Position numbers and translations under genes: made by a program. The notes under the pieces are model-generated. The model did no database searches. It had not been told where the DNA came from and saw only the letters and a list, made by a program, of their open reading frames with translations. A stretch of DNA of 64,000 nucleotides from Kiritimatiellia bacterium (GTDB taxonomy: Bacteria; Verrucomicrobiota; Kiritimatiellia; CAIVKH01): assembly GCA_035327665.1 (NCBI GenBank), contig DAOLCW010000006.1:165-64164 (forward strand). The letters are read 5' to 3'. Shown here piece after piece: positions 1,632-62,228 of the stretch. Numbering within the stretch: the first letter of the stretch is position 1; each line of letters begins with the position of its first letter.

Positions 1632-1816
1632 TCATAGATGAACGCCTCACAGATGCTCCCATCCAAGATGGGAACTGCGCAAAGCCGAAATCCACACCGC
1701 GCACCAGTAAAAAGCGTAGCGCCGAAATCCGTTCGGCGCCTCATCAGCGCACGCCCTTCGGAGAGACACCTACAGCCAGGGATGTCCGGTCACCCAAAAG
1801 AGAGAGAGAAACCAAC

Positions 1817-2899: not shown

Positions 2900-2912
2900 A
2901 CCGGCAGACAAT

Positions 2913-10181: not shown

Positions 10182-10308
10182 AACGCCATTCAAGTTCGAT
10201 TCAGGTCCGACGAGCCGGACCGTAGACCGGGAAAGGGCGTAACCTAACGCAAACCCTCCCCCCGGATCAAGTCCGGGGAACCGCTGAACGAACAAATTAA
10301 AAAACCGG

Positions 10309-32689: not shown

Positions 32690-32810
32690 AACGTTAACCG
32701 CTCCCTTGTGCAAAAATTCCTTGGGTCGTCCAAGGCGCCTTAAAAGGCAAGTGGCGGTGGGTACCATACCCCCCCTCCCCTGTCAATTCACTTTGGGCGG
32801 AATCCGCGTC

Positions 32811-32904
32811 CAACGTCCAAAGCTTGGAAACCCAAAACCCGCACGTTTCCAAGGTTTGGAAACCAAATCGACCCCATTTTCCAAGGTTTGGAAACCAACT
32901 TGCG
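32811..32904. promoter_or_regulatory. three direct copies of a near-palindromic ~18-bp motif (TCCAARGYTTGGAAACC), operator-like array
   Basis: The copies are GTCCAAAGCTTGGAAACCC (32811-32830), TTTCCAAGGTTTGGAAACCAA (32851-32872) and TTTTCCAAGGTTTGGAAACCAA (32883-32904). Each is an imperfect inverted repeat (TTCCAA..TTGGAA). The array sits 120-215 nt upstream of the dksA-like start. Confidence 0.45.
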
Positions 32905-32909
32905 GGGGG

Positions 32910-33128
32910 TCAGGCCATGACCGCGACCTGCTCGGCATCATGCCGGGCCGCGGGAATCCTTCGCCACGAAGCCTGCAAGTCCTCGATGTGCAGGGCAACG
33001 GCCTCCCGGATCAACTTCCGGACCTCGGCTTCCGTCCGCCCGGCCGCAACACAGCCGGGAAGATCGGGCACGTACGCCCCCCACGAGGAGGTTCCGCGCT
33101 CGATGATCACTGTATAGCTTCTCGTCAT
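32910..33128 (-). CDS. hicB: HicB-like (UPF0150) antitoxin-family protein, apparently orphan
   Basis: MTRSYTVIIERGTSSWGAYVPDLPGCVAAGRTEAEVRKLIREAVALHIEDL matches the HicB N-terminal fold signature (YxVIIE…PDLPGC…EA…LH). The start is the internal ATG at 33128. No HicA partner was recognised nearby. Confidence 0.6.
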   Translation of the reverse strand: MTRSYTVIIERGTSSWGAYVPDLPGCVAAGRTEAEVRKLIREAVALHIEDLQASWRRIPAARHDAEQVAVMA

Positions 33129-33249
33129 GTGTCCAATCCTGCCTGCCTGAGAACGCTTTTCAAGGGGCCCGGCGGAATGTCGATCCCTGATTGCCCGGAC
33201 ACCGTGACCGTACCCGGCGTCTACGAATGGCGATACTGGCGGTGACTGC

Positions 33250-33841
33250 CCTAAGGCAATCGAAATCGCGCTTGAGTTCAAAAAAGCATCGGGCGCCGGG
33301 ACGCAAGGCTTGCTGACCGACAAGCGAGCACGCCACATCATCGCCGCTATCTACTCCATCGCCAACAGCGACCACCAACAAGTATCTCAAGATTAGCCGG
33401 GTGATTTGGAATGACGCTTGCCGGGATTCAGTGGCGTCCGACAATCCTTTCGCCAAGGACAAAGTATTGGGCACGGAAAAGCACAGTTGCAAGGGATTCA
33501 CCCTTGACCAAGTGAGGGACATTTATGCGTTGGCATGGGATTCATGGCGCGGAATGATCCTTCTGGGTTTCTACATCGGCCAGCGTATTGGAGACCTTGC
33601 CCGGTTGACGTGGCAGAACGTTGACTTGGCGAAAGAGGAAATCCGGTTGACCACCGCAAAACCGGGCAGAGATATGATGATTCCAATGGCAGGTCCGCTT
33701 GTCGATTACTTCACCACCCTACCCGCGTCCGATGATCCTACCGCCCCGGTATTCCCCGACCTTGCCAAACTACGCAGGGGAACCCTGTCCGGTAAGTTTT
33801 CCGCACTGGTAGCCGATGCCGGTTTTGGCACTACAATATGA
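33250..33841 (+). pseudogene. degenerate tyrosine-recombinase (phage-type integrase) remnant
   Basis: The 33401..33841 frame encodes …MILLGFYIGQRIGDLARLTWQNVDLAKEEIRLTTAKPGRDMMIPM…, the integrase catalytic-domain start with Arg-I and the conserved Lys. It stops before the H-x-x-R/Tyr region. An upstream out-of-frame segment (…TDKRARHIIAAIYSIAN…) looks like the core-binding region interrupted by a stop. The stretch is lower in GC than the neighbourhood. Confidence 0.55.
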
Positions 33842-33945
33842 CCCGAAAAATACAGCCTTTGATATTCAACGGGTTACGAAGCTTTTTTTACTTTATCAAC
33901 GACTTACAGAAAAAATGAGGCGTTGAATAAGAAACTTGGGTTCAT

Positions 33946-34109
33946 CTGGTTGAAACCATCATGAGACCTTCAAAAAGTTCTCTTTAAATCTGGCTCAGAT
34001 TTCGCGCCGGCCTGAAAAATCACAACGCAACAGTTTTAAGTATAAGTTAAACTGTGAACCCGTCAGAACGCCCGGTGCAGGAGGCGAGGCGGCATGCCGA
34101 TGAGCGGTT
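33946..34109. repeat. ~165-bp direct repeat, copy A (3' flank of the giant gene)
   Basis: About 85% identical to 60320..60485. It starts CTGGTTGAAACC…ATGAGACCTTCAAA and has an identical 26-mer GTCAGAACGCCCGGTGCAGGAGGCGA. On the minus strand it contains the 10-codon mini-ORF MPPRLLHRAF (34063..34095). On the plus strand an AGGAGG is 9 nt before an ATG at the repeat end. Confidence 0.85.
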
Positions 34110-34181
34110 CTACATCGGGCATAATTCCAAAAAATCGTGAAGGTAGGACAGCATCCGTTGCCTGTGCGGGCCGGAATCTTT

Positions 34182-37100
34182 TCACTCCGGCAATGCCGTT
34201 TCGGCCTGCAGGCGCAGGAATTGCATTTGTTGCTGAACGGGAATAGACGCTTTCCACAATTCGCGTTGTTGTGCATCCGTTTGGCCCGTGAAGATGTTTT
34301 CAATCCCATGGACGGTCCAGTCGTCATTAACCGCTGTCGCCTTGGCAGGATCGAGGTAAACATTCACAGCGCGCGGATTCTTATAGTAGAGCATGATCAG
34401 CTTCATCGTGCCGTTTTCCGCCTCAATCGAACTGCTAAACAGATCAGCGGTGGCACAAGCCTCCATCGCATCGAGTCCGGCGGCAAATTTCATAAGGTTG
34501 GGTATTCCGTCTCCCATTGGAGAATCTTTAGCTCCGCGTAGATTTGGATCGGGGATGGATTCTGCCCACTCCGAAAAGGTCGTCGTTAGTTCGGCCGAGT
34601 CATATGAAAAACGAAGTCGCATGTGGGCCTTGGGCCCGGTAAGTGGCAGGCGCGCCTCCCAAACCTGATAGTCATCCGTCTCTTCAGCCTCCAGGTGATG
34701 CCGCTCAATGCCGGCTTGGCGCCAGAGCGGCGACACCAGTGATCCCGACCATTCCGGCAGGATAAACACATCAACTGCCTGCTTTGATTTCCTATAGCGT
34801 AGGATCAGATAATTGCCTTCCGATCGACTCACGAACAGGTCATCAGCTTTATGCGCTTCGGTCGGGGACAGGCCGACTGCATATTTGGCTAGGTTCGGAA
34901 TCTGATCGTCCATCGGACTGTCATAAGGCCCCCTTTGGGTTGAATCTACGATTTGCCTCGCCCACCTCTCGTAAGCCGTCAGATCGCTTTGATTTGTCAC
35001 CGTCAGGAAGATCGACTTGGTCGATTCACGGTTACCGGCCCTGTCGACACTGTAATAACTCAGTGAATAGATCCCGGGCGTATCATAGGTAATCACCCCC
35101 GCATAGTCGATCCATGTGTTCTGGCCATCATAACTGACCAAGATCTGATCGATCCCACTGGCATCATCCGTAGCGGTGAGATGGATCATGACGCCATCCA
35201 AGTAGGCCCCGCTGGACAATCGGGTTCCTTCAATCGCGTAGGCAGTGACCGGTGCGAGCCAGTCGGTGCGCGCCTCATAAATCACAGAATCGGAGGGCTC
35301 GCTGGCATTGCCCGCCGCATCGATGGCAACCGCGGTAAGCTCGTAATCCCCGTAAATAAGTTTGAGCTCGGAGGTGGTGAACAGGCCATTGGTACCGGTC
35401 ATTGCGGTTGCGATCAGAACCCCGTTGCTGTTGCTTATATAAACCTTCGTGCCGATTTCCGCCGCTCCGGTCAGGACGACGGTTCCGTTGCTTGATACAT
35501 GTAGCTGCAAGGTCGGCGGGGAAGGTGGGGTGAAATCAACCACGACGAAAAAGGTGAAGGGATGCTCGACATTCGCGCCGGTTACGGCATCTTCGCCCGT
35601 AACCGTAACATCCATCGAGTACGATCCATCGGCAGCGTTATCGGCCAAGTCAATGTTTACGCCAAGTCGTAGTCGCCCTCCGGCGGCGATTTGTTCCACC
35701 CCGTCCTCAAACGCGAAAACCAACAGTTCGGTAGCAAGCAAGTCGCCCGCAGCGGTGACCAAATCGCCCGCCATGATGTTCATATTGGTCACGCCATGCG
35801 TGCCGCCAACCTCAAGAATATCGGCTTGGATCAACACATTGCCTCGGCCAGTGAGCATGCCGTATACCGAATGACGCGTGTGCAGGCGGGCCTCAGCATC
35901 CTGCAGTTCTGAGGCGATCAGGGCAAACTGATCGGACGGATGCACGCGTACTCCGTTAACGTTTACCGTCCAGACCGATCCCGCTTTCACATTGCGAATC
36001 GTCACGAGCTGGCAGCGGCTGTCTGGGCCGGTAAACATAGCGTTGGGTATCTCGACCACCACGGCACCGGCATCGCTGTCATAGCCGGCATGGTGCCCGG
36101 CAGAATCATGCACATGTAAATCCATCACAGCGGCGGGATCATGCAGGAGCATAAAACGCAACGCACCGTCCTGGGTCGCGGTATACGTCACCGTGTGCAT
36201 CGTATCGGTGCCAAAATCCTGCTGTAAAAGGTGTCTCGGGATCGAGTCGGCCAATCCGTTCAGCCGCAATTCTGTTGCACTCTGAACCGTGGTGACCCAC
36301 GGCCCGTAGGAAGCCCGTGAAAGCGTGTCCTCTTCCCACAGTTCAAGCATGAGCTCAACATCGAATCCGAAGAGACTGTAGGTTTGCGCGTCCGGAAGCA
36401 GGATCCCGAAAGAAAGCGTTCCCGCATCGCCTGCGTCAAGTTTGATGTTTGGAAACTCCAGCGACAGCACCTTGCGTCCATCGGCGTAAAGATTGATGAG
36501 CGGGCGACCACTCCAGTCCAGCGTTCCATTGTTGGCCAGCGTGATTACTCCGGGGGTTAGCCTCATGCCGCGCTCATCCGGGAGAATCGCATTTGCGATT
36601 TCAAAGGAGAGGACTTCAACCGAGAGAACGGGGTCAATCGGCCGGTGTTCAATCAGGTACTGGATGTGTCCGGAGAAATCGCGCATGAAGGACCAAACCA
36701 CTCCAGCTTCCTGCTGATGGGCGGCGGTGTAGTCTTGGATGTCCCGGAAGAGGATTCTCAGGCCGATGCGCTCGGCCTCCTTCATGGAACTCATCGCCTG
36801 TTTATAGATTTCCATCGCCTCATTGACGGAGCTTTGGACCGAGTTGTTCACATGTCCGGCCATCTCTCCGAGGATGCCCCCACCCATGCCACCGACCATG
36901 CCGAGAGAGTCAAAAATGAATTTGGTCATGCTCAGTTCGGTGTATTCGGCGACCAATTCGGCATGGAACGCGATGTTATCCCACTGCATCTGCAAGTGCT
37001 TATAACTCCGGTAGAGCAGCGCCTTCACTTCACCGAGTTCATGCGCTTCCATAATCGGCGTGTTCCAATAGGGCGATGCGGTTCCCATGGCATACCAGAA

Positions 37101-55100: not shown

Positions 55101-58100
55101 CGTCAGGTTGCGGATCGCGTAGCCCCCGCCATCGAAGGTGCCGGTGAAGGGGGCGCTCGACGTCCCGATCGGAATCCAGCCGGAGCCCGCGTTCCAGATC
55201 GTTGAATCCGAAAGGTCGAGGTCGCCTCCGAGGCGGTAGTGGGCGGCAAGGTTCTGGCCCATCGCCCGCAACGCCGCCGGCGTCGTGATTAGATAGGGGT
55301 CTTCGACCGTGCCGGCGCCGTCCAAATCGCCCAGCGCCACCTCGGGCGGCTCCACATATCCCGCGATGCGCTGCAGCGTCGGATAGTCAATGCCTTCCTC
55401 GATCCGCCAGATGCTCTGGAAGTTGAAGACCCCATAGGTGGCCTGCTGCTTCATCTGCTCGGTGGTGCGGGCCGCTCCGCCCGCACTAACGCTCAAACCC
55501 GACACCATTTCATCCCAGAACCCGTCCGCCTCGGTGCTGCCGTAGTTTCGCCCGACATACCCGCCCACATTACTGTTGCCCGAGACGGGTCCGGCGCTGT
55601 AGCCGCGCCGCAGGCGGCTGTAGTAGAGATAGCCGACCAGCCCGCCCACATCGCTCGCACCGGTAACCGCCGCCCGGCTGTAACAGTCGCTGACGATCTG
55701 ACCATACTGATACCCCACCACGCCCCCGACCTGATTGCGCCCCGTCACCGACCCCCGTGCAGAACTCTGGATCAGCGAACCGGCGCTACTCGACATATAA
55801 CCAACCAGCCCGCCCACCCGGTCACGCCCCCGCACCGAGGCACCCACCGATGAGGCAAACAGCCTTCCTCCATTGAGCCGTCCCACCACTCCGCCCCCGT
55901 CATCCACGGTATTCACCTGCCCAACCCCGTCAATTCGCGCCAGAGCGCAATTCTCCGCCCACCCCACCAGCGCCGCCGTGTAGTGCTGCCCCTGCACAGA
56001 CGCCTGCTCAAAGACCACCCCCTCGATCACGGCATCCTGCGCATAGGCGAACAACCCCTGGTAATCCGTCGTGGACCGGTTGATCGCGAGATTGCGCAGA
56101 ATGAATCCGGCGCCATTAAACCGACCCCGAAAGCGGTCCGCCGCCGCAGACCCGCCGACCGGCGTCCAACCCCGACCACCATCCCAGGCGACCGTGGCGG
56201 TCAGGTCGATATTCGCCGCCAACTGGTAGTGCGCATGCAGGCCGTGACGCATGGCATCCAGTTCCTGAACATTGGTGATCAGGTACGGCGAAGCAGCCGT
56301 GCCCTCCCCTTGCAGCGCAGCGGTCGTCAGATTCTGCCGTCTGGCCAAAGAACTCAAGTCGTTCAACTCCGGGTAGCCCGCGCCCTCTTCGATCGACCAG
56401 AGCGTGAAGAAATTCCAATTCCGGAACGTGACGCGCTGGCGGAGCATAGCGCTCGGCAAACCGGCTCCGGCCGGACTCGTCTCCCTGCCCGAGGTACCCG
56501 TGTCCCAGTAGCAGTCAGCTTCCGAACCCCCGTAATTGCGCCCCACGAAACCCCCGATATCCGATCCCGTGCCAGTCACCAGCCCTGAACTGTAGCTCCG
56601 CCGCACCGGGGCATAGTACAAATACCCAATCAACCCGCCGACGATGCTGCCGCCCTCGACCTCCGCCCAACTGAAGCAATCGGAAACCATGGCATAATTG
56701 GCTTGCACTCCGACCAGACCTCCAACGGAGGACGTACCGCGGACCGCGCCTTTGGCGGCGCTGTGATAGAGCGTCACCGCGGATCCATCAAGACGCCCTG
56801 CGACGCCTCCGATCTCAGTTGATCCCTGGACGGTCGCATCAACCATCACCCCGTGCAGCGCGCTGCTGCCCCCCGCATGTCCGATTGCGCCGCCGGTGTA
56901 GGTGCCGCCCTGCACCGCACCCGTGACCGTCACCCGGTCTACCAGGCTGGCCCCCGTGGTCGCGCCCGCCAGCGCTCCCACGTAGGCCGCTCCCTGCACG
57001 GCGGCATCCTCCAGTGCCAGATGCTGCACAACCGCCCCGTTCAAAACGCCGAACAGTCCCTGGTAGTTGGTGCCCGGGCGCGCAATGGTCAGCCCCTGAA
57101 TCGCATGCCCATTCCCGTTCAGCCGACCATGGAAAGCGTTTGCGGAGGTCCCGACCGGAACCCACCCCGCGCCCTCGTTCCAGGGGGCGATACCAAGGTC
57201 GATATCCTCGACCAACCGGAAATGCTGCTCCCAGAACACCGAGCCCAGAAACTCCCGCAGGTTGTTCAACTGCGCCGGCGTCGCGATCTGCCAGGGATTT
57301 TCTTCCCGCCCCGTCCCATCCAGAAACAGGTGCACCGCGCCACGCGGCACATCGGCCCGACCCGCAGTGTCGCGCACCGTGACCTCGAACTTCAGAAACC
57401 GCCCCGCGTCCGCCTCAGTCTGCACCCAGGTCGCGCCGGTGGCTCCGGGGATCAGATCGAAGGGACCGTTCGCGGCCAGCCCCCGGTACCACTGGAAGGT
57501 CGTGCCCAACTCGGTGTCGCCGGCATCGCCCGGATGGTAGACGTAGTGTCCGGTGAGCGTGTTGCCGACACCATCGCGTCCCGTCACCCGCACCGGATGG
57601 GCCCACGGCGCTACGAGGGACACCCCGACGATGTGCCCGGACTCGCCCGCGAGCAGGTACGGCTCGCTGTACTGGCCCTCGTGACCAATACCCCAGGTCG
57701 TCGCGAAATCCCAGCCCACGTAGGTCGACTGCAGCACCATTTGCTCCGCCGGCTTGCCCCCGTGGCCGCCGTCGCCGGCGCTCGTGGTCCGACCCGAGGT
57801 CGTCACGTTCCAGTAGGAGCGCTCGATCCGCGTGCCCGCCGTGGCCGACCCGACCAGCCCGCCTACGTTGTTCGCGCCACTGACTGCCCCGACGCTGTAG
57901 CACTCAATCACGCGACCGCCGGCCAGGCTCCCGACAAGCCCACCGATCAGCCCCGTGCCCTGTGCCGCTCCACGCGCGTAGCTCTGCTCGACCCAGGCCC
58001 GGTCTCCGGCCATCTCGCCAACCAGCCCGCCCACGCGCTGCGCCCCCGTAGCCGATCCCAACGCGAGCGAGCGCAACACCTGGCTGTTCTCGTGGTACCC

Positions 58101-60263
58101 GACCAACCCGCCGACACTATTGCCCGTGCCGGTCACCGCGCCCGTGGCGTAGCTATCCACGATGCGGCCATTGATGTTGTGATTGCCGACGAGCCCCCCG
58201 ACGAGCGTCGTGCCGCTGACGTCGCCCGTGGCGAAGCACTCGACCACCTGGCAATCCTCCCAACTCTGCCCGGCAAGTCCGCCGATGCGCTCGCTCGACC
58301 CAATGACCGTCGCGCTGGAGGAACTGAACTCGATACGGCTCCCATATTGCGATGCCCCCACCAGCCCGCCAGAGCGGGTCCGCGCCGAAATCGTCCCGGC
58401 CGACGTACATCCCGATACGACACCGCCGTACTCGATCTGGCCCGCCAGCCCGCCGCTGCGGTCGCGCGCGTTAATGTCGAATCCGACGACGTGCAGCCGC
58501 TCAAGGCGCCCGCCGTTGACGTACCCGAACAGCCCCTGAAAATCGGTCGTAGCCCGGTTGATGAACAATCCGGAGACCGAGAAGCCGTCCCCGTCATAGG
58601 TCCCCAGGAACCCGGCGGTACTCGTCCCGATCGGCACCCACCCCTCGCCCTCGTTCCAGGGCGCGACTCCAAGATCGACGTCGGCGGTTTGCCGGAAATG
58701 GGCGCTGGGATTGTAACGAACCGCGTTGAGATGTTTCGCGCTGGCCACGAGATACGGACTCTCGACGCTGCCGTTGCCGCCCGCGAATCCCGCTGCACCA
58801 GGCGACGAAGCAAGGTTGTACAAATGGAGAATTTCTACCTCGCTTAAAGGCCGGTCGTAAATGCGTATATCATCGATGACGCCGTCAAACATATAGGTGG
58901 ACGAACTGCCCGCGTGTGCGGTGGCAATATACAGGGGCAAGCTCGAGCAGGTCAGCGAACCCGTTCGATTGGTGGTCGAGGAAAGCACGCCATTCACGTA
59001 AAGCCGTATCTGAGTGCCGTCATAGGTCGCGGTGACAAGGTGCCATTCGCTGGCATCGTGGGTGCTCGTGGAGCCCAGTCCGGTTTGTGTCCCGTCCAGT
59101 GTCATCCGCGTGAACGGCTGCTTGGTGTTCCGGGCGTACTCGAGAAGATAGGTCGTGTAGGGGGACGCGGTGTTGTGAAATCTCTTTTCGATGATCCGGC
59201 CGTTCGCATTCCCGCCCGAGGGTTTGATCCACGCGGATAGGGTAAGATGTTCCGGACAGAGCGCGGCGTCGTTCGTGACAACCATGTAGTCGCTGACCCC
59301 GTTGAACAGAAAGGCTGAACCAGGATTACCAAAACGGTCGGCAACAAGCTGCGGAGCGCCAATAACCGTCGCGTGGCGTCCGTTTCCACTCGCATCCTGA
59401 GTATTCCCGTCAAAGGGTAAATGGACAATCAGCCCCTCGTTCACATTGGTGCTCCCCGGCCCTTGGGCGGGTCCCCGCACAACGGCAACCGAATCCGCGA
59501 CGGACTGCCCGGCGCTGTTGGTGCCGGAGGCGGTGATGACGTTGGTGCCGACAGCGAGCAGGCTGGAGAAGGACCACGAGGACGCCACCGCCACTGCGCC
59601 ATTCGCGCCGTTCAGGTTGTTGGTCCAGCGGATCTGTCCAGTGAGGTTGGAGGAGATGCCGCCGATGGTCAGGTTGCTGATGCTGTGGCCGACGCTCTGG
59701 TTGGCGTTGGTGATGTCGAGATAGGGCGTCGTTGGCGGGGGCGACTCGGCGATCATTTTATCCAACGGGTCAGAATCCATACCGCCGCTGCCCAGGTCAT
59801 ATTCCGTAGGTGGTGACATCGGTGGGTTCCAGGCAGCCTCGAGCAGAGGACCATCGTAATAAAATTCGCCGGGCACAGGCATCATGCTTTCAAAGACCCG
59901 TCCGAAGACTACGGTCGTAGTGTTAGGTCCGGACGCGGAATAGAGGCCGTAAATACCGTTTGCCAAAGGGCTAAAACCAAAAATACTCAGGGTAGCCGAC
60001 GACAACAGGATGTCGTCGCCGCCCAGCCAACCCTCCGGGTTGGCGGGGTCGACCGGATCAATCTCGCCGTTGAGGCCGGCATCGATGAGTTGCGCGACCA
60101 CCGGACCTTCCATCAAAAGCGGGGTAACACCATCCGATTTGTAGAAACCCAACATGCTTCCCCATAAGATGGAAATCTCGTTTTGGGCGCATACCGGATA
60201 GATGCCCACCCCTGTGCCAAAAAGTATAAACAACCCAGCGAGTTTGATCCAGCGAGCGTTCAT
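34182..60263 (-). CDS. giant secreted multidomain adhesin-like protein (8,693 aa)
   Basis: A single ORF with no stop, starting at ATG 60263 with AAGGAGG 8 nt upstream, and a signal peptide (MNARWIKLAGLFILFGTGVGIYPVCAQ). By eye the architecture is: an N-terminal Ig-like region; a LamG domain (~58.8–59.4 kb: LIVHLPFDG…WHLVTATYDGTQIRLYVNG…FDGVIDDIRIYDRPLS); five ~340-aa modules rich in GLUG-type (V/I)GGLVG repeats, each opening with a conserved PY(L/V)I…L…A…HY(R/Q)L…D(I/L)DL…W…GWxP(V/I)G…F.G.(F/L)(D/N)G.G head (~53.4–58.8 kb); three BACON-like domains (~52.3–53.3 kb); InlB-B-repeat-like domains (~51.6–52.3 kb); a He_PIG/cadherin-like region (~51.0–51.5 kb); a long run of CARDB, FN3, PKD and Ig-like domains (~38.1–50.9 kb); an ~470-aa alpha-helical segment (~36.6–38.1 kb); and C-terminal Ig-like domains ending in two tandem DSPM(D/G)DxIPNLxK(Y/F)A(V/A)GL modules (~34.2–34.9 kb). 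Confidence 0.9.
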   Translation of the reverse strand: MNARWIKLAGLFILFGTGVGIYPVCAQNEISILWGSMLGFYKSDGVTPLLMEGPVVAQLIDAGLNGEIDPVDPANPEGWLGGDDILLSSATLSIFGFSPLANGIYGLYSASGPNTTTVVFGRVFESMMPVPGEFYYDGPLLEAAWNPPMSPPTEYDLGSGGMDSDPLDKMIAESPPPTTPYLDITNANQSVGHSISNLTIGGISSNLTGQIRWTNNLNGANGAVAVASSWSFSSLLAVGTNVITASGTNSAGQSVADSVAVVRGPAQGPGSTNVNEGLIVHLPFDGNTQDASGNGRHATVIGAPQLVADRFGNPGSAFLFNGVSDYMVVTNDAALCPEHLTLSAWIKPSGGNANGRIIEKRFHNTASPYTTYLLEYARNTKQPFTRMTLDGTQTGLGSTSTHDASEWHLVTATYDGTQIRLYVNGVLSSTTNRTGSLTCSSLPLYIATAHAGSSSTYMFDGVIDDIRIYDRPLSEVEILHLYNLASSPGAAGFAGGNGSVESPYLVASAKHLNAVRYNPSAHFRQTADVDLGVAPWNEGEGWVPIGTSTAGFLGTYDGDGFSVSGLFINRATTDFQGLFGYVNGGRLERLHVVGFDINARDRSGGLAGQIEYGGVVSGCTSAGTISARTRSGGLVGASQYGSRIEFSSSSATVIGSSERIGGLAGQSWEDCQVVECFATGDVSGTTLVGGLVGNHNINGRIVDSYATGAVTGTGNSVGGLVGYHENSQVLRSLALGSATGAQRVGGLVGEMAGDRAWVEQSYARGAAQGTGLIGGLVGSLAGGRVIECYSVGAVSGANNVGGLVGSATAGTRIERSYWNVTTSGRTTSAGDGGHGGKPAEQMVLQSTYVGWDFATTWGIGHEGQYSEPYLLAGESGHIVGVSLVAPWAHPVRVTGRDGVGNTLTGHYVYHPGDAGDTELGTTFQWYRGLAANGPFDLIPGATGATWVQTEADAGRFLKFEVTVRDTAGRADVPRGAVHLFLDGTGREENPWQIATPAQLNNLREFLGSVFWEQHFRLVEDIDLGIAPWNEGAGWVPVGTSANAFHGRLNGNGHAIQGLTIARPGTNYQGLFGVLNGAVVQHLALEDAAVQGAAYVGALAGATTGASLVDRVTVTGAVQGGTYTGGAIGHAGGSSALHGVMVDATVQGSTEIGGVAGRLDGSAVTLYHSAAKGAVRGTSSVGGLVGVQANYAMVSDCFSWAEVEGGSIVGGLIGYLYYAPVRRSYSSGLVTGTGSDIGGFVGRNYGGSEADCYWDTGTSGRETSPAGAGLPSAMLRQRVTFRNWNFFTLWSIEEGAGYPELNDLSSLARRQNLTTAALQGEGTAASPYLITNVQELDAMRHGLHAHYQLAANIDLTATVAWDGGRGWTPVGGSAAADRFRGRFNGAGFILRNLAINRSTTDYQGLFAYAQDAVIEGVVFEQASVQGQHYTAALVGWAENCALARIDGVGQVNTVDDGGGVVGRLNGGRLFASSVGASVRGRDRVGGLVGYMSSSAGSLIQSSARGSVTGRNQVGGVVGYQYGQIVSDCYSRAAVTGASDVGGLVGYLYYSRLRRGYSAGPVSGNSNVGGYVGRNYGSTEADGFWDEMVSGLSVSAGGAARTTEQMKQQATYGVFNFQSIWRIEEGIDYPTLQRIAGYVEPPEVALGDLDGAGTVEDPYLITTPAALRAMGQNLAAHYRLGGDLDLSDSTIWNAGSGWIPIGTSSAPFTGTFDGGGYAIRNLTINRPESDYQGYFGYLQNATVRDLRLEGVTVYGNRYVGILAGRADTSTIDNVSVAGLVRGHNSEIGGLVGYVNGGTIHRATADVRVQGVSHVGGLVGYTDGGVQVRHSAAFGQVAGTGNTIGGLSGYHRSGTLADCYSGADVTGPANVGGLVGWGGNSGYWGNMHRCFSVGAVSGGSSVGGLIGTHHTGNVTDSFWDTETSGRETSAGGSGAQGRTTTAMWTRENYAFFNFDTVWRIDGGEGYPAFQDFRGYVPPDAVALEDLQGQGTELSPYVLHNASELNAMRLAPGAHYRLAQDIDLADTTIWNAGQGWLPVGTSEARFTGTLDGAGFALRNLTINRPVSAGQGLFGYLGAATVRSLRLENAHVHGLSTLGALAGQMTGAGLVEDVAVTATVRGQTDNIGGVIGDLQTAQVRRVSAIMEVGGGRYVGGLVGYTFSSPILSQCYSLGRVRAFTETAGGLVGWHRQGTIADCYSGAAVGGGYNVGGLVGYAGGSGGYWGNVDRGFSFGAVSGSSGLGGLIGYRHTGNITDCFWDTGTSGQESSSGGGTGLATEALQQAGTFSGWNFVDVWTIDAGQSYPYHRDTPRTIALAESHRAFGNAAVTGQSLRVTGNMTWTATASSGWITIDGNASGVGDGVVRFSLAANTFGAPRSGTITVIAGAGAVRVFQIEQRALLVVVPEQGDHDASASGGHVIEVCGNVEWTASSSAAWLELTGDTTGSGAGTVHYRVQPNPSLDARDGVVTIAGGGLSRTVAIRQAGAPAFLSVAPHYREHVGAASAGNALEVESNHGWTATKTAPWLTITGGASGTGSGTLTYSLDLNDTSAERMAWIVVAGAGRTATFRVVQAPELPSEMTLYTIETAVQPPDAGSVTPGASLYGNEYFSAMATVGDPEKYVFRRWLFNGQVVSYSPSHSFAVQGSGTLVAEFERTQFAVTVTISPAGLGTVSGAGLWSYGIAGTLTANPAAYCSFVEWREGATDEVVSTSPSYTFSVIASRHLVAVFEEDVKEHEVTTATLPPGLAMIPGAGTWTNGQTATFVAPAMILKDDQRYVFQRFTRNGTHASNQSTWNWTLTRADPAVVLVQAEYQVYDMSPAVREVRRTFDSPVPATDTQVVTLVFDRTMDTGEIPLAVMRRRSDSAERVLSTQGGQWLNIYTTQDAYRYDPLTLVPADDGEYDLTVSGARDNYGVPMEPTNVWTFVVHGTPPTLTLPDLPTEINELVLFEFPAQGADGVPGNPLVFSLTAAPAGAAIHPQSGLFSWTPSERQGPGSYTFGVRLDDGLGHAIQTVTIDVLEVNRPPTLNAIPDRTIQGETALSFQAVGSDPDISAGDLQQSLTYRLEGNVPAGAAMTSSGYFTWTPTGAQIPGEYTMDVVVSDGESEARRSFTIYTFDRPDVTVTQLELPSLAPMEGAAVRLRARIDNIGGGDLLQGIYVGFYVNGNFIGNQWISSSTLPKGQYAWVERIWTAVPGTHTIEVRADYLNQVQESREDNNSLSETLAEILVPDIAVTHASWLPESINEGEKVRFFFDVTNLGGATARDVDVHLNVDGAWVASDRIRGPFGNRTESLVLEWTATPGPHSVEIVADRHGKISEINRTNNVVQISLDPIQDTLPPTFTSLVPGNGQRIRGVFALHVAATDISGISRYQIESSLDELFWTTLHEGAAGTGSWDTTVLADGVYAVRFSAEDTKGNIQQVTHRVTVDNTPPAAVTLSAQPIEFGAVLNWTKPAESDYSFCRIFRAASPEGPFVQLNATIYSQSSYTDRPLSPGMSYSYVVRAYDVAGNVSDDSNVVTVTPNGDQSPPEIRSLSPAENSAHNAIIHLLADIRDNVGVTLVRYEFTERPAGSYALSDLIWTNLCEGTAMSCDWDVTELPTGRYLIRLTAWDAAGLSSSLVRTYLVDHQPPGSVGAVTIQRRELALAVAWNSPGDSDLVGYRLSRQVNGGAFTVLKERLTSTLYVDMNLQPDVLYAYRVEAEDMLGQFGAPSDSPAVTTLSDTTAPILVGVMPQAWSRHSGAINLALLAKDNDAIATGAFWYRLVGNANWLECSGTPQALWQAEQRHWRIQQTWNPDGLPDGEIEIRARAEDRSNNSLETTFILVRDTEAPAAPQGLSATDPQTGSSIQLSWSANGESDLAHYRIYRRVSGESGWQPAGSSSSESFTVESLQSDQAYQFAVSAVDLAGNESPLSDISELATTTRADLTIQSLVFDPRTPAQGRLGHIVARVLNRGPARAQVTVRFYVSNGGAEEQVGIQHLWLNGLASADVRCPWIPQNGGSQTIRAVAVVVAPALDPTPGDNELSREVLVNHPPVAMAGSDRSVDWYEELAFDGSGSSDADGRIMEYLWTLGDGKTKRGMNVVHRYEAVGVHTVTLTVTDDRGVSSTDSILVTVADTRADLIVEKITWMPGEPEEGDEITIIATIRNQGNGPTRNAFFATYYISGVYHGYVIVHDRIAAGDAVDVTFRWTALKGLHTVKVVADDLINAVNELSEVNNDNQVHMTFQQIHFPDLLIAEMTCPVPAVITSQEALKATLTVQNAGTADAEKIFVALYQNGKMISRKPLPDLAASGTLTTTFDVMPVNGTNTLTAMVDGPVSLIVESDETNNSYTLELGDLTVEHPDLQLELTVQPDEEEMAHGSWIDMSATVKNLSAVGLLQTAPVDFYVNGRRVGTREIRHLAPGASKTVAFQVLATEGVHEIRVVVNENQTIAESDYSNNEQRHTTKEIRILYSDLTVGNVSWFTQHGGPVKYGDSLIVTFNLSNLSLVSSYARSSVILLVNGRQVSKLEIGSIRGYETVQTGLMWKNVDVDPTVSHTLAVQVDPENVIPEENEANNIATAAIQLSIQDGLIVDAKLDREADEVFGIPIYISSETCRVSARASYASAPKAWLDTSAGQTMTLSLIYTPGVVIQPGELPYYPDPETLYDDVPMLYDLLASRFNLELPLASFNETGNYSVRITYNDGALSRSQTLPFMVIQDCTIHMEPSSPRVLAGERLVISGRVLDLQGLPIADETLLLAIFEGEDGFGDMANPALAALANMASDVTTAKVKTSPTGEFTYLHRTLRGQSGMYTVTGYLISSVVAASGTCNFEILNAGFDSPGANITMPKNYTHSKTVTLRNSSIRALTNVRVDLSEVVAANGIEARLVSSVPSVLSAGQAVQLTVVLEAEEVADDAGQFRLSFSCNEGIERTYDLNVTLLDSGPSIRFSESMLKLGMNPGDTLFRRVTATNRGLGTLKNFTVSGAPNLPWVTVNYSGIRNLEPGAALELEVVVQPYAATGLGLYRDYITLSDENNISFRMGIEIELTSATRGGVSFTVGNDAGRLIERAEVRLISKETTPVINPDGSTAGQRYEVFIDRTDAAGRVMFEDIPTGAYTYSINSSGHESVKGEVEIMPSSLPVLISETLTATPITYTWSVTPITIEDRYEIILDISLRIDNLNKPSIVSLPPWATIAQTVEQGYSDRLIFVNQGDLALRNVRVEVIGDPKLINSLSLAGGGDIGIIEAGESVQLAYYIAPGTYEDLKGGSRFKLTGTYRALDQKTGEFADFGVTNQVPIYNPAADRTATIRVPGFQDEKVKMPDFGDGEQEFDGLPKLQDEDSDRVSVAVKLQIPQEATLEREGFEAVLTFRNGLSDDLVGFSVAPRVFDAANRDVTSAFYIVQPSLSGGLSAADGSQTLAGGTEFTASWILVPGVGLGGEDPAGKKYYVEAAATYSQAGQFREFNTHSEEITVHPQPLLELFYYLPEKILANTPFRLGVFVENHGFGEAKNFRIKSGQPKITENESGVPLQMEIVGSSFGAGNVETKEWAVEFGDVAALGWARGYWITRCNLDATVTEFTAELVHLPFKGVQLNPLITAVHTEIILGDFLFADEIDPNNSFSLIDRDDNGIPDYLINLHTGLRQDIIVPDELQVTQAPTIEAPQMTFTIPATNGFVCMVLNDPLVSINIRGIQRHHLDGSGAIHQLSGNNFWRDGEILYIVDRIGQIVNGQPVGMPVTYVIDYQSALEIRKLEIGTFVFNTLMANADDKTLGRYAQTHWWEDYRDDDGFGVIEYGLGSIANKVPLYNSPLPIIAGDEGGVRIELYNRGVSPESGDIGVYLIDAQGGETLVATAQVEELRSYRTQTVELVFDTTTDGLYTLEVRFLDTRTEGNASRQFRINARPVSDAGLDQTVKLGKPVRFNSSRSYDPDGVVVNYQWYMDDRRLDVDGKETGGKWIAGPVPSYTFADSGTYKVLLVVTDYDGAMEEDKMLVTVEETRPDLYVASFGHGQAEVLDGQLLTVSVGIGNAAEDLPPDAKFYVSLYAGEKLVDTRLVTGGLPAGQTGTISFDYIASMSEPFLTVVLDDMGSRVNEANEWNNVDTLAIFADQVVFADLVAENVRLSVAPGEPVNWGRPIQVLADIGNRGDINADKPFRISAYVDGIYLGHSALDQLETNATETVSFTWVPTPGEHLVEVIADWPHSHIRESNENNNRAALTVNKNNLNLILPNLVLQQLTFEPENGQLASGVPVLVTASIFNHSAVSLPFGSEVVMTVNGQTVARRAVAPIAAGHFTAALLTWNDPWPGTHDIKVSLDPGRLWYETDVSDNVLLVKKTFSITQGDLTVRQVVVPPAASAGVETRLGINIANRGLGRISKPFNARLFADEQPVAVERFNLLLLPGQTFWWNPVWVADETMAGNTVTLRVEVDTLDEIDESDETNNSYEASVLIEQGLKVVMDLDKTVSLPGDVVEVVIDVLDTKTMQRVPAANVAVSVVMRDANGTDMQIVSGAFDNGWSAMLPTAGIDAGKYGVQAVARGDGKTYVSASRSLVLVEELVVECAAPERVLLGEAFAITGRVSTIGGQGQSSRSVFVRVEPVSTNEPIFLPAITDASGNFEVTLQATKALAGELGISAQAVGADLLGMIFRSSSQTAMVFGLESLVSPMVIAGHLNEAAPFSLTVEAVGADVQIESVAFIPDPEGMGADGVVANLDAVVPSGLIPDGETRIFSGTVTSTQVCGHLLVEARMACRIGESNLTTSAWFVFSATERKTLGIELQDALIFNGTMLDHTIPKEAYTDSLTVGAERKVLIDVVVTNHTDEVLTNVELVCTNYPWIVITPSKLGNIAPGQAAVARLELETFRSSVSGATYPMKLTAESGEGYRAEQPLELRLKSPAHEYYVLCRLVDQFENPLPGQRILFRSGGVERTGTTTVAKGTVMMNLPPGRCAYNVLIGSAYPYSGLEGSFFVTGETETHDIVVRVEPFGITLQRTASQELESYGEARLNLVLEGNAVNPLRLYRPGREFALILGGAGVPAEMDELVPEFDRFNQRGQFSFSNDSDEYLIGVALVLKGELAPYIHIRNTFIEGNLLHLMMAPRATTVINWDLDVNGLLALQAQAGKDLVLDGIIHIFTLQGFEANYHIRIRLADTFDRQNGVPYEYVFYTDWMGRRCPVGMDTLPLWLGLDRENAAAIDGTEEAGLMASISQKVLAAGQSFILESAVRNQMPDQALQVESCILRIYDANGVEVTHRFRIQQQSDITAEAIPAMQSRRSAWKVLVNDPSLADGTSGGTPYTARIEGVTLFGNARIPYEQNVGFVVQPSPSIQISYSFKQTGNRSGTLTARVTNSGQGNAYNVKIELPAMRDAVISDTATSSSRTVDVLAPNETAEFTWNLTFSSDLHATEVLSQIKTFSPMMLGEQGEWIQAPVTHEFRTEHTIAELLDLVDDLIRALENKVENEFWHLAQIYSETEDIIHEMAYLGQLQIVTETVNQMISVIYSIKDLVFGIHSFAKDITEFYDEENKVLSLLEKATEQARREIANKYGEEMNNPSGGGDMSYYDALKSIDLLGFASVGDSVVKLNSELLAMVDLLHAQKQIQENLTENLGRLAQATLNNATPPTTEEIRKQLEYASVDSREYYRRLMEYIAMHNNLPEDLNDYQLLRHLGAGQKVAGLDMYLAAIDSLGMILRSQLWSLQQSKVSAIFPIDLLYQELHSMTATLVSYDPGKRSGSPYTPNTVTTPGLENAEDRAQVFWYAMGTASPYWNTPIMEAHELGEVKALLYRSYKHLQMQWDNIAFHAELVAEYTELSMTKFIFDSLGMVGGMGGGILGEMAGHVNNSVQSSVNEAMEIYKQAMSSMKEAERIGLRILFRDIQDYTAAHQQEAGVVWSFMRDFSGHIQYLIEHRPIDPVLSVEVLSFEIANAILPDERGMRLTPGVITLANNGTLDWSGRPLINLYADGRKVLSLEFPNIKLDAGDAGTLSFGILLPDAQTYSLFGFDVELMLELWEEDTLSRASYGPWVTTVQSATELRLNGLADSIPRHLLQQDFGTDTMHTVTYTATQDGALRFMLLHDPAAVMDLHVHDSAGHHAGYDSDAGAVVVEIPNAMFTGPDSRCQLVTIRNVKAGSVWTVNVNGVRVHPSDQFALIASELQDAEARLHTRHSVYGMLTGRGNVLIQADILEVGGTHGVTNMNIMAGDLVTAAGDLLATELLVFAFEDGVEQIAAGGRLRLGVNIDLADNAADGSYSMDVTVTGEDAVTGANVEHPFTFFVVVDFTPPSPPTLQLHVSSNGTVVLTGAAEIGTKVYISNSNGVLIATAMTGTNGLFTTSELKLIYGDYELTAVAIDAAGNASEPSDSVIYEARTDWLAPVTAYAIEGTRLSSGAYLDGVMIHLTATDDASGIDQILVSYDGQNTWIDYAGVITYDTPGIYSLSYYSVDRAGNRESTKSIFLTVTNQSDLTAYERWARQIVDSTQRGPYDSPMDDQIPNLAKYAVGLSPTEAHKADDLFVSRSEGNYLILRYRKSKQAVDVFILPEWSGSLVSPLWRQAGIERHHLEAEETDDYQVWEARLPLTGPKAHMRLRFSYDSAELTTTFSEWAESIPDPNLRGAKDSPMGDGIPNLMKFAAGLDAMEACATADLFSSSIEAENGTMKLIMLYYKNPRAVNVYLDPAKATAVNDDWTVHGIENIFTGQTDAQQRELWKASIPVQQQMQFLRLQAETALPE

Positions 60264-60319
60264 GGCGCGACCTCCTTGGCACGACCGTCGGATCGTTCCG
60301 ACACCTTCCGTGCATTGCC

Positions 60320-60485
60320 CTGGTTGAAACCGTTCATGAGACCTTCAAACCGTTCTCTTTGAATCCGGCTTCAGTTTCGCGCCGCCATGAAAAAGCACAA
60401 CGCGACAGTTTTAACTTTATGTTAAACGATGGAACCGTCAGAACGCCCGGTGCAGGAGGCGACGCGGCATGGTCGATAAGCGGTT
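60320..60485. repeat. ~165-bp direct repeat, copy B (5' leader side of the giant gene)
   Basis: Homologous to 33946..34109, with the same conserved 26-mer at 60436-60461. The minus-strand mini-ORF reads MPRRLLHRAF (60438..60470). The repeat ends 56 nt upstream of the giant gene's start codon. Confidence 0.85.
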
Positions 60486-60498
60486 GGATGGGCGCTGG

Positions 60499-60882
60499 TC
60501 AACACCCAGGCTTGCACATCGGGCAAAATTCCCGACCGGCGCAGATGAGCTGGCAGGGCGAAACGCCAAACAACCGAGACAGCAGGATAAGATTGCCGCC
60601 CGAGGGAAAACGGATGCCATGCTCCCAATCGCTCACCGTGGCGGCGGTTACGGAAAGTTCAAACGCCACCCGCTTGAGCGGCCATCTGCGGCTCGTGCGA
60701 AATCCTTTTAGGCGCCGCCCGATGAGCTGCTCGTATTCTGCGGGCGAGGGACTGAGGGGTTTGGAATCATCCCTGCGGGGCGGGTTTTCGAGAGCCGCGA
60801 CCGGTTGGAGGGTCCCCGGGAGGTTCTCCTGCCGGAAACCTTTTTGGATTTTTATCCCTTCCGCCTTCTTGCCGTTGCTCAT
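60499..60882 (-). CDS. XRE-family (Cro/C1-type HTH) transcriptional regulator
   Basis: ATG at 60882. HTH_XRE signature LIGRRLKGFRTSRRWPLKRVAFELSVTAATVSDWEHGIRFPSGGNLILLSRLFGVSPCQL. A Cys-rich C-terminus follows. It is encoded directly upstream of the giant gene and co-oriented with it. Confidence 0.7.
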   Translation of the reverse strand: MSNGKKAEGIKIQKGFRQENLPGTLQPVAALENPPRRDDSKPLSPSPAEYEQLIGRRLKGFRTSRRWPLKRVAFELSVTAATVSDWEHGIRFPSGGNLILLSRLFGVSPCQLICAGREFCPMCKPGC

Positions 60883-61193
60883 ATATCCGGAGATCCGGGA
60901 GATCCGGTGACTCCTTGTTCTGAATAAATAAAATGATCAAATCCTTCGCGTTGATCAAGTGCTAAAAGTGGGATTTCCCTGACCCGCGTCCACCCTCGCT
61001 TATCGACTTGATAAGATATTGCCATTATCGTTGTACAGGTGGTGGTTGCTAGTGAGCCCTGACCGGGCAGGTACCTGCTGCGCAGTTCAACAGGCCTGCG
61101 GCTGAGCTGGAGGCATTTGATGGCTACCTCGACCATCTGGCGGCGGAGAAGAGGTTTGCTCAGGAGGTTGAGGTCATAAAGTGAGAACGACAA
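60879..61193 (-). CDS. hypothetical protein, 4-nt overlap with the XRE gene
   Basis: A 104-codon ORF in a low-GC patch whose stop overlaps the XRE start. No recognisable motif and the start codon is uncertain. Its arrangement suggests a two-gene cassette with the XRE gene. Confidence 0.35.
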   Translation of the reverse strand: MSFSLYDLNLLSKPLLRRQMVEVAIKCLQLSRRPVELRSRYLPGQGSLATTTCTTIMAISYQVDKRGWTRVREIPLLALDQREGFDHFIYSEQGVTGSPGSPDI

Positions 61194-61237
61194 TCCTCAG
61201 CGGCGCGGCGCCGCGCCGCATCCCTCTGTTCGGCATC

Positions 61238-61570
61238 TTACTGGCTTTCGATTCCGACAGCTATTTCCAAAGCCAGATCAAGCATGTGCATCTTCTTCGA
61301 TGACAGTGAACCGACATAATTGGTTAGCCGGTTTTTGGTTAAACTTACCAACTCATCACAGTGAATACTGCTATCATGCTTGAGCCCTTCGCTTGTTCCG
61401 ACCGGGACTTGGGTGCTAAGTCCATCATGCACCGTGTAGATTGGCGCACAAATGACCGTCGAGAATGTTGAGTCAATCACAACCTGTCTGCCGACAATGA
61501 CAAAGACGCGTGACTTCTTGGGATCTCTTGAACTCGGGTGTTCGACGCGGTAAAGCTCGCCTCTCCTCAT
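61238..61570 (-). CDS. MazF/PemK-family type II toxin (endoribonuclease-like)
   Basis: [46 protein letters not shown]… matches the PemK/MazF pattern (RGDIY.VdL.p..G.E..K.RP.LVvs…v.v.PiTs). ATG at 61570 overlaps the upstream gene's stop. Confidence 0.7.
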
Positions 61571-61797
61571 GTGGACACCTGGAAGTCCAGGACGGCTTCG
61601 GCTTCCTTGTTCATGGCCACAGCTTTTCGGTCAATGATCTCGCGATCACGCCGATCGCTCTCGCTTCGTGACAATTGCGACAGGTAGTTCTTCACCGCGT
61701 TTTCAATGAAATTTGACCGGTTTTTGAATTTGCCGAGATTCCGGTCAATGTTTTTCAACAACTCGTCAGAAAGTGTGATGGATGTCTTTATTTTCAT
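61567..61797 (-). CDS. ribbon-helix-helix (CopG-like) antitoxin
   Basis: Internal ATG at 61797 ([39 protein letters not shown]) has an RHH N-terminus. There is a 4-nt overlap with the toxin gene. Confidence 0.65.
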
Positions 61798-61982
61798 ACC
61801 ACCATTATACCCCGCCAAGCGGATAGGTAAATTACTTTTCTTGCCGAACGCCCATGCTAACGGGCGCGCGGTAGCGAGTACCGTTCAGTGTGTTTGAACC
61901 ATGGACCGGACTTCTCTTGGGGGACAGGTCGCTTTTAGACCAAGATTCACAATAAGCCTGATTCTATGGGTTATTACGAAAC

Positions 61983-62058
61983 TGGCACCCCCAACGGGAT
62001 TCGAACCCGTGTTACTAGGATGAGAACCTAGCGTCCTAGGCCTCTAGACGATGGGGGC
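61983..62058 (-). tRNA. tRNA-Glu (anticodon CUC)
   Basis: The reverse complement GCCCCCATCGTCTAGAGGCCTAGGACGCTAGGTTCTCATCCTAGTAACACGGGTTCGAATCCCGTTGGGGGTGCCA folds as a cloverleaf. Its 5' half is near-identical to E. coli tRNA-Glu, the anticodon loop is TTCTCAT, the T-loop is TTCGAAT, and CCA is encoded. Confidence 0.85.
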
Positions 62059-62078
62059 CTTGTTTGAAAGCCGGGAAA

Positions 62079-62153
62079 TGGCTCCGACGGTAGGGCTCGA
62101 ACCTACAACCTAGTGGTTAACAGCCACCCGCTCTACCATTGAGCTACGTCGGA
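62079..62153 (-). tRNA. tRNA-Asn (anticodon GUU)
   Basis: The reverse complement TCCGACGTAGCTCAATGGTAGAGCGGGTGGCTGTTAACCACTAGGTTGTAGGTTCGAGCCCTACCGTCGGAGCCA has a 7-bp acceptor stem, anticodon loop CTGTTAA, T-loop TTCGAGC and an encoded CCA. U1 is as in E. coli tRNA-Asn. Confidence 0.85.
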
Positions 62154-62228
62154 AGCAGAAAACGGTGGCAAACTATGAATATCCGAAGCTTGAAAGTCAA
62201 GGGGTTTTGCACAACGGTGGGGCCCGTC

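Follow-up and report, generated by a model that had tools for sequence, protein, structure and literature searches.

Genomic islands are usually 10-200 kb long, are flanked by 16-20 bp direct repeats, deviate from the remainder of their chromosome in nucleotide statistics and often lie at transfer RNA (tRNA) genes; they carry functional or cryptic integrase and other mobility genes, and they are present in some close strains and absent from others (Juhas et al. 2009, FEMS Microbiol Rev, PMC2704930). These criteria are applied here to a block at about 32.9-61.9 kb of a 64,000-nucleotide stretch from the metagenome-assembled genome of a Kiritimatiellia bacterium (PVC group; GenBank assembly GCA_035327665.1, contig DAOLCW010000006.1, positions 165 to 64,164), the whole of which is called the window below. 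One 26-kb gene makes up 90% of this block. Genes of that length are among the largest in bacteria, and Reva and Tummler, in 'Think big - giant genes in bacteria' (2008), are said to have described giant genes that are strain-specific and atypical in oligonucleotide usage. The block is likely to be an imported segment of 29 kb that has decayed into a now immobile genomic island of the Kiritimatiellia chromosome. A decayed genomic island beside a tRNA gene is a known type of feature, and its cargo is in this case unusually large. What distinguishes this locus is that nearly the whole island is one gene, that strand skew and not GC content reveals the import, and that a repeat brackets the cargo.

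The block is compositionally foreign to the chromosome around it. The host reference was 34 kb of the window with 25 host genes, in which the guanine-cytosine (GC) skew of the plus strand at four-fold degenerate sites is -0.66 for plus-strand genes and -0.68 for minus-strand genes (pooled, -0.67). C is thus far more frequent than G at these sites of the plus strand, independently of gene orientation. Individual host genes range from -0.22 to -0.96, and those adjacent to the block from -0.74 to -0.96, including dksA (-0.75), lspA (-0.95), trmL (-0.89) and moxR (-0.95). Within the block this bias is missing. The small genes pooled give a four-fold-site skew of +0.05 (95% interval -0.08 to 0.20), the giant gene gives -0.07 (95% interval -0.10 to -0.04), and all genes from hicB (0.00) through the ribbon-helix-helix (RHH) gene at the other end are near zero. 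The same holds along the giant gene, where the skew at third codon positions stays between -0.08 and +0.11 in all nine 3-kb pieces. A homologue of the giant gene in another, strongly skewed genome (locus L099; raw skew +0.2 to +0.33) serves as a control: its four-fold-site skew of +0.36 to +0.63 has the sign and size of its own host. Members of the family therefore take on the host bias when resident, and the copy in the window has not done so.

This control bears on the age of the block. The initial annotation of the window, made from the letters alone, had reasoned from the host-like GC of the giant gene that its acquisition would be old. The lack of the host skew of -0.67 in both the giant gene and the flanks does not fit this: the cargo looks as foreign as the flanks and younger than the strand bias of the host, which argues for import after that bias was built. 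Most other Kiritimatiellia loci retrieved for comparison have skews near zero, as do the contigs that carry the closest homologues of the giant gene (fragments 64-67% identical), so that an unskewed relative is a plausible type of donor.

A three-segment fit to the raw GC skew places the change points at 32,600 and 62,200, which nearly coincide with the limits of 32780 and 62160 that the annotation had proposed for an accessory region. Counted by genes, the block extends from 32910 to 61818. It lies between the dksA-lspA-miaA operon of the host and a group formed by tRNA-Glu, tRNA-Asn, trmL and moxR. The elements that the annotation had listed were all recovered at or near the positions it had given them, and a direct repeat of 165 nucleotides (nt), which it had not listed, brackets the giant gene exactly. 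The features of the region, from left to right, are as follows (aa, amino acids; E, expect value):

31811-32767, minus strand: gene of the dksA/TraR zinc-finger type, left host border (Pfam zf-dskA_traR, E=3.2e-8)
32815-32893: three copies of the palindrome TTCCAA-N3-TTGGAA with a period of 32 nt, between the hicB stop and the dksA start
32910-33128, minus strand: hicB-like antitoxin gene, 72 aa (Pfam HicB_lk_antitox, E=1.9e-9; PHROG HicB-like, E=2.4e-10)
33128-33220, minus strand: 5'-truncated remnant of a hicA toxin gene (Pfam HicA_toxin, E=7.6e-6, model positions 31-58 of 58)
33401-33841, plus strand: tyrosine-recombinase pseudogene of the phage integrase family (Pfam Phage_integrase, E=1.2e-7, model positions 4-122 of 172)
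33946-34108: direct repeat, copy A, starting 74 nt past the stop codon of the giant gene
34182-60263, minus strand: giant gene for a secreted multi-domain surface protein of 8693 aa (open reading frame; Pfam; NCBIfam)
60319-60484: direct repeat, copy B, from 55 to 221 nt upstream of the ATG of the giant gene and 15 nt past the stop of the XRE gene
60499-60882, minus strand: XRE-family helix-turn-helix (HTH) regulator gene, 127 aa (Pfam HTH_3, E=4e-8; PHROG transcriptional regulator)
60879-61193, minus strand: open reading frame of 104 aa with no recognisable family, overlapping the XRE gene by 4 nt
61238-61570, minus strand: PemK/MazF-family toxin gene, 110 aa (PemK_toxin, E=6.6e-14, model positions 1-107 of 109; PHROG MazF-like)
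61567-61818, minus strand: RHH (MazE-like) antitoxin gene (Pfam RHH_1, E=0.0045; NCBIfam MazE, E=1.6e-4)
61983-62058, minus strand: tRNA-Glu(CTC) (ARAGORN; Rfam tRNA, 58.8 bits)
62079-62153, minus strand: tRNA-Asn(GTT) (ARAGORN; Rfam tRNA, 72.2 bits)
62229-62756, plus strand: trmL, right host border (NCBIfam TrmL, E=7.7e-52), followed by moxR and DUF58/VWA genes

The annotation had described the flanks as richer in AT than a background of about 60% GC, and this is borne out. The interval 33250-34180 has 51.0% GC, against a mean of 60.0% (standard deviation 2.7, minimum 52.6) in host windows of 930 nt, and 60300-62000 has 53.1%, against a minimum of 54.3% in host windows of 1700 nt, so both lie below every host window of equal size. 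A patch at 37-38 kb inside the giant gene is equally low (50.0%). The giant gene as a whole has the host-like GC content that the annotation had ascribed to it (59.8%, host 60.0%), and the likeness does not extend to strand skew. At four-fold sites its GC fraction is 0.79, that of the host 0.80 and that of the flank genes 0.66, with a range of 0.54-0.83 among the six small genes of the block. Sliding-window GC and tetranucleotide analysis had been put forward as checks of the island. In GC the flanks deviate (51-53%); in strand-symmetric tetranucleotide usage the whole block does, at z=2 to 6.7 from the host.

The strand bias of the host is also an observation in its own right. C outnumbers G about 5:1 at four-fold sites of the plus strand overall and about 40:1 in prfB, lspA and moxR (-0.95 to -0.96); AT skew is weak. 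To our knowledge, this asymmetry reaches or passes the upper limit of what has been reported for bacteria, and a literature search on such strand asymmetry returned nothing relevant to Kiritimatiellia. The closest TrmL relative (locus L007) has an intermediate skew of -0.14 to -0.23. Weaker skew also occurs outside the block, in the genes of a secreted beta-helix protein (-0.26) and a LamG protein (-0.39), both in DNA of 53-56% GC, and in those of methionine aminopeptidase (-0.23) and 3-deoxy-D-arabinoheptulosonate 7-phosphate (DAHP) synthase (-0.22); weak-skew zones are found at 1628-4259 and 8257-10442. Later acquisition or selection on codon use may account for them.

Degraded mobility and addiction genes are found at the ends of the block: an integrase fragment and hicB with a truncated hicA on the left, and an XRE regulator and a MazF/RHH pair on the right. 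The left flank resembles a HicAB module in its HicB domain and in the usual gene order, with hicA upstream. It differs from such a module in that hicA is not intact: the 31 codons directly upstream of hicB keep the C-terminal half of the toxin, and the N-terminal half is gone. The loss of that half implies that the module is defunct. The annotation's reading of hicB as an orphan is therefore correct as to the gene and, strictly, not as to its isolation. The hicA remnant ends no more than about 25 nt from the start of integrase-related sequence.

The integrase fragment, which the annotation had recognised as degenerate, is real. Its N-terminal part is missing or unrecognisable, with an in-frame stop upstream, and a 41%-identical homologue (P0123) aligns with it only over residues 2-151 of 242. 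The catalytic C-terminal part of that homologue, with its HSLRH...Y motif, has no counterpart anywhere in the window. A frameshift inside the integrase was considered and rejected, the upstream frame having no family match; the claim is confined to truncation. In the databases searched for an intact parent element, this partial homologue was the sole match for the integrase, and nothing was found for XRE. When Pfam, NCBIfam, PHROGs and PADLOC were run over all open reading frames of the flanks and over their longer stretches free of stops, the matches were limited to toxin-antitoxin, HTH and integrase families, with no conjugation, phage-structural, transposase or defence genes. An anti-phage defence system in the flanks was considered as well; none was found, and XRE gave only weak HTH matches.

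On the right, the XRE regulator and the mazEF-like pair noted in the annotation are also genuine, and Pfam, NCBIfam and PHROGs agree on the MazF/RHH assignment. The RHH gene precedes the toxin gene on the same strand with a 4-nt overlap, and a strong promoter-like site (TTTACC-16-TATAAT, 61831-61804) lies upstream of it. By sequence, a PemK/MazF toxin gene with a co-oriented small antitoxin gene upstream is thus predicted. The pair is like MazEF systems of the PemK family in the full-length match to the toxin model, the overlapping upstream RHH gene and the promoter-like site, and differs from them in its antitoxin, whose matches to MazE and RHH models are below the curated cut-offs. The XRE gene stands directly upstream of the giant gene on the same minus strand, and its protein has no close relatives in Joint Genome Institute (JGI) metagenomes. 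The adjoining 104-aa frame matches nothing in Pfam, NCBIfam, PADLOC or PHROGs; it may not be a real gene, or it may be the remnant of a toxin partner.

In the relatives compared, the block is absent from the equivalent sites. On the right, the order trmL-moxR-DUF58 is kept in Kiritimatiellia relatives, and the genes upstream of trmL differ by lineage and are ordinary ones (GH57/CBM53, SDR, suf, GT2, LemA, glycogen phosphorylase or P-type ATPase genes); similarity with L007 starts at the trmL ATG at 62229. The best relatives of the TrmL border protein belong to metagenome-assembled genomes of Kiritimatiellia. Relatives at 65-75% TrmL identity have no tRNA gene upstream of trmL; in two others, at 55-58%, a tRNA-Ala occupies this place and ordinary genes come after it. 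On the left, the gene at 31811-32767 opens a conserved cluster, dksA-lspA-miaA-hflX-radC-lpxA, which is kept in relatives with ileS or purA-uppS-cdsA upstream. Neither the giant gene nor mobile-element genes were found at either flank site in the relatives examined.

Two features of the left border deserve mention. At its N terminus the DksA/TraR protein bears a tail that resembles histone H1, about 150 aa long and with much Lys, Ala and Pro; its homologues in relatives are 190-300 aa long, and alignments cover mainly the C-terminal 44-90% of the query. The palindrome TTCCAA-N3-TTGGAA occurs three times in the window, against 0.11 expected, and recurs with the identical 32-nt period in intergenic DNA of two other Kiritimatiellia loci (L010 at 1151-1197, 2793-2903 and 5904-5950; L009 at 2877-3030). 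The copies stand in tandem, and the spacers between them are not conserved. The array is an intergenic element of the host clade and a marker of the left border zone. By its looks it binds a protein or resembles repetitive extragenic palindromic (REP) sequences, and it is spread across the clade.

Taken together, the composition, the degraded genes and the comparison with relatives suggest the following history. The block would have been acquired horizontally once the strand bias of the host lineage was in place, probably from a related, unskewed bacterium of about 55-60% GC. A tyrosine recombinase may have integrated it at or next to the 3' end of tRNA-Glu, and the copy of the attachment site (att), half of hicA and the greater part of the integrase would have been lost in later deletions, leaving the block unable to excise by itself. 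The toxin-antitoxin pair beside the tRNA may help to retain the block, and the giant gene would be transcribed from the region of repeat copy B, downstream of XRE and possibly under its control.

The role of the tRNA gene in this history is the part that the data fit least evenly. The annotation had called the region the classic signature of an island at a tRNA gene. The abutment on the tRNA 3' end and the cryptic mobility and addiction genes agree with that description, but an att duplicate, the expected position of the integrase and an intact integrase are lacking. ARAGORN and Rfam agree that the 3' end of tRNA-Glu (61983) faces into the block, as the annotation had it, and the block ends no more than 165 nt from it. 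This adjacency is the sole point in favour of classic tRNA integration; roughly estimated, no more than about 0.3% of a genome falls within such a distance downstream of a tRNA gene. Rfam found no families other than the two tRNAs in the window or in the 165-nt repeat.

Several observations weigh against an imported tRNA-associated island. The annotation had suggested looking for a duplicate of the tRNA-Glu 3' end near 33.2 kb, and no partial copy exists anywhere in the window; probes from the 3' ends of tRNA-Glu and tRNA-Asn (25 and 17 nt, up to 3 mismatches) found only tRNA genes or chance-level matches outside the region. Rfam detected no tRNA-like fragment at 32.5-34.4 kb (E<=10), and no direct or inverted repeats of at least 10 nt connect 32650-33450 with 61750-62200. 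The integrase remnant is at the other end of the block, 28 kb away from the tRNA, and the order of tRNA, att site and then integrase is absent from the region. The integrase and XRE have no close relatives in the databases searched. No relative has the two host flanks adjacent, both borders being general break points of synteny, and the search by way of TrmL relatives in GTDB genomes and of contigs encoding DksA homologues gave neither an empty site nor a shared island. The contigs of the closest relatives, with border proteins 72-75% identical, break off at the junctions, and more distant relatives lack the block at both flanks. As to composition, the giant gene is host-like in GC and in AT usage at four-fold sites, its tetranucleotide deviation could stem partly from the unusual composition and internal repeats of the protein, and the wide range of skew among host genes (-0.22 to -0.96) makes the yardstick not fully uniform.

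Compared with described genomic islands, the block is alike in size (29 kb), deviant nucleotide statistics, position on the 3' side of a tRNA gene, cryptic integrase, toxin-antitoxin modules and a cargo that is likely to be a fitness factor, a surface protein. It is unlike them in having neither 16-20 bp flanking repeats nor a duplicated tRNA end, in its catalytically dead integrase at the end distal to the tRNA, and in its devotion to a single gene. It is not a member of the active tRNA-targeting elements, such as P4-like islands or integrative and conjugative elements, having no intact integrase, attR or transfer genes. With the giant genes attributed to Reva and Tummler it shares a surface-protein gene of more than 20 kb in a compositionally deviant accessory region; here, in distinction, the anomaly is the missing host strand bias and not GC, and a 165-nt repeat brackets the gene.

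The giant protein combines LamG, GLUG/M26_N, BACON, He_PIG, more than 10 CARDB, PKD, fn3, Big and OmpL47-type domains. Judged from this content, which is rich in lectin, Ig-like and CARDB domains, its most plausible role is binding or adhesion at the cell surface. It is not an orphan: this status was considered when a word-index search with the C-terminal region returned almost nothing, and was rejected when an exhaustive HMMER scan with residues 7300-8499 gave a real family of 3303 matches at E<=1e-3. Residues 2926-8553 are collinear with P0126, a protein of 6981 aa, and 50.8% identical to it over 5669 aligned columns. This protein is encoded at locus L099 on a 1.59-Mb contig (European Nucleotide Archive, ENA, ERZ21831104), and is the source of the skew control described above. 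The two proteins share the CARDB/PKD/He_PIG architecture. The P0126 gene differs from that of the window in its housekeeping neighbours (M16 peptidase, exbBD, bacA and ribBA-ribH-nusB-ftsY), in having no flanking repeat, in carrying its host's skew and in lacking the N-terminal part of 2925 aa; no tRNA, integrase or toxin-antitoxin genes were found around it.

The giant gene is itself a mosaic. Its 5' 8.8 kb (51489-60263) have 64.1% GC and the remaining 17.3 kb (34185-51488) have 57.6%; the GC changes at about 52 kb, in agreement with a limit of homology at 51.5 kb, and the N-terminal 2925 aa, with LamG, GLUG, BACON and InlB-B-like repeats, have no counterpart in P0126. An array of GLUG/M26_N modules of about 1 kb each occupies 54000-56900 of the window (residues about 1120-2090). 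Another assembly (ENA NODE_122) encodes a giant protein of 9335 aa instead of 8693 aa, with the differences confined to 54.0-56.7 kb; they reflect either a true difference in the number of modules or a collapse of repeats in one of the assemblies. At the closest available homologue of the 3' end of the gene (locus L100, 64% protein identity), a PIN-domain (VapC-like) toxin gene at 4492-4836 directly follows the giant-gene homologue, and a YebC-like gene comes next. This is the second toxin gene found beside a giant gene of the CARDB/PKD giant-protein family.

The two copies of the bracketing repeat are 86% identical over 167 columns by blastn (E=7e-49), or 84.9% over 166 aligned columns. A promoter-like site, CTGACG-16-TATACT, is present on the minus strand of copy A, and a weak promoter-like site occurs at the equal position in both copies (in copy B by eye). 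Copy B is the probable promoter or leader region of the giant gene, going by its sequence and position; after copy A come 104 nt of AT-rich DNA and then the truncated integrase, and no gene. Most simply, the repeat is the promoter or leader region of the giant gene present twice, either because the gene and one copy recombined into an older copy, or because a tandem paralogue was lost and its promoter stayed behind as copy A. Other identities of the repeat were examined and set aside. As a folded RNA it shows no convincing structure (z of -0.95 and -1.93 against shuffled sequences); as coding sequence it has mostly non-synonymous differences between copies in the frames examined and no Pfam match; and it is not a multi-copy family, the two copies being the only ones in the window and in all loci retrieved, with 0 matches to a 28-nt core in JGI metagenomes. 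This core, an identical run shared by the copies, was also dropped as a candidate crossover site, its length being within chance (P=0.16).

The repeat gives rise to a refinement of the import scenario, possible though clearly less probable than import as such, in which the block was assembled in two nested steps. An islet of about 3 kb, consisting of RHH-MazF, orf104-XRE, one copy of the repeat, the integrase and hicAB, would first have come to lie between tRNA-Glu and dksA; a segment of 26.4 kb, the giant gene with one diverged repeat copy, would later have recombined into the resident copy, leaving the repeat on both sides. The repeat indeed brackets the giant gene alone (74 nt past the stop and 55 nt before the ATG), homologous giant genes elsewhere (loci L099, L102 and L103) have no such repeats, and copy A has no gene following it. 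The lower four-fold GC of the flank genes (0.66 against 0.79) and the 51-53% GC of the flanks mildly favour separate histories, so that independent insertion of the flanks, which the annotation had offered as an alternative, is still compatible with the data. On the other hand, the four-fold GC spread among the six small genes is wide, the repeat has only two copies, the 28-nt identical run is no longer than expected by chance, and an orphan promoter of a lost tandem paralogue explains the repeat equally well. A further step along this line, namely that the 26.4-kb unit is a discrete cassette which moved between Kiritimatiellia genomes into a toxin-antitoxin/integrase islet at a shared promoter-like sequence, is doubtful.

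It is improbable that the giant gene is native and long resident, with only the short flanks being foreign, as independent insertions beside the tRNA. Such a history would agree with the GC content of the gene (59.8%; 0.79 at four-fold sites), which matches the host, with the ordinary chromosomal setting of its homologues in other genomes, and with the lack of att sites enclosing the whole block. It is opposed by the strand skew. A value of -0.07 is maintained along 26 kb, next to host genes at -0.74 to -0.96, and the resident homologue at L099 took on the skew of its own host (+0.36 to +0.63). We know of no replication-linked bias that would spare a stretch of 26 kb.

A chimeric assembly is very unlikely. 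In that case the block would derive from a co-occurring Kiritimatiellia and would have been joined to the host contig through the shared tRNA-Glu and palindromic element. Logan unitigs from two samples do end at the junctions (62030/62038 and 32884/32906), both of which lie in sequence shared by the clade (the tRNA and the TTCCAA-N3-TTGGAA element), and the same study contains other, related Kiritimatiellia (L009, from SRR2107179). Against this, at least two assemblies hold both joins: that of the window, and ENA ERZ794930, whose NODE_122 (128.8 kb, 48x coverage) is 100% identical to the window across both junctions and differs only in the GLUG array. Going by the unitig ends (k=31), the repeated nodes would be no longer than about 51 and 37 nt, which ordinary reads span, and a chimera would require two independent misjoins that together insert one complete block. 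The unitigs that end at the borders come from SRR2107180 and SRR2107181 and are 100% identical to the window, with overlaps of 23 and 9 nt; the implied graph nodes are about 32877-32913 and 62009-62059, the latter covering positions 1-50 of tRNA-Glu. Their ends are compatible with co-occurring relatives or with a population variant. As a sign of an empty-site variant they are uninformative, since co-occurring relatives explain them equally well.

That the block is native and was inverted recently or repeatedly, so that opposite strand biases cancelled, is barely credible: zero would be the expected midpoint for a segment changing its replication strand, but inverted repeats of at least 10 nt are absent from the borders, all genes and 3-kb pieces would have to be near zero at once by coincidental timing, and the flank genes are typical of mobile elements.

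Import followed by decay to an immobile island thus carries several implications for the organism and for the giant-protein family. A gene of 26 kb would be able to arrive horizontally as nearly the sole cargo of an island, in a family that is also resident in related genomes. In a genome such as this one, with synonymous sites polarised almost completely by strand, imports stand out gene by gene even when their GC content matches the host, and the resident homologue provides the control. For annotation, the region is best regarded as accessory and immobile and is likely to vary between strains; the count of GLUG modules already differs between assemblies. If the 26.4-kb unit did prove to be a mobile cassette, deletion or exchange of the entire giant gene through the repeat pair could still occur, the clade would swap giant surface-protein genes as whole units, and the strand bias of the host would serve as a clock for dating imports. 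The general significance of the island is modest; the strand bias of the host may merit more attention than the island itself, and may be the more surprising of the two.

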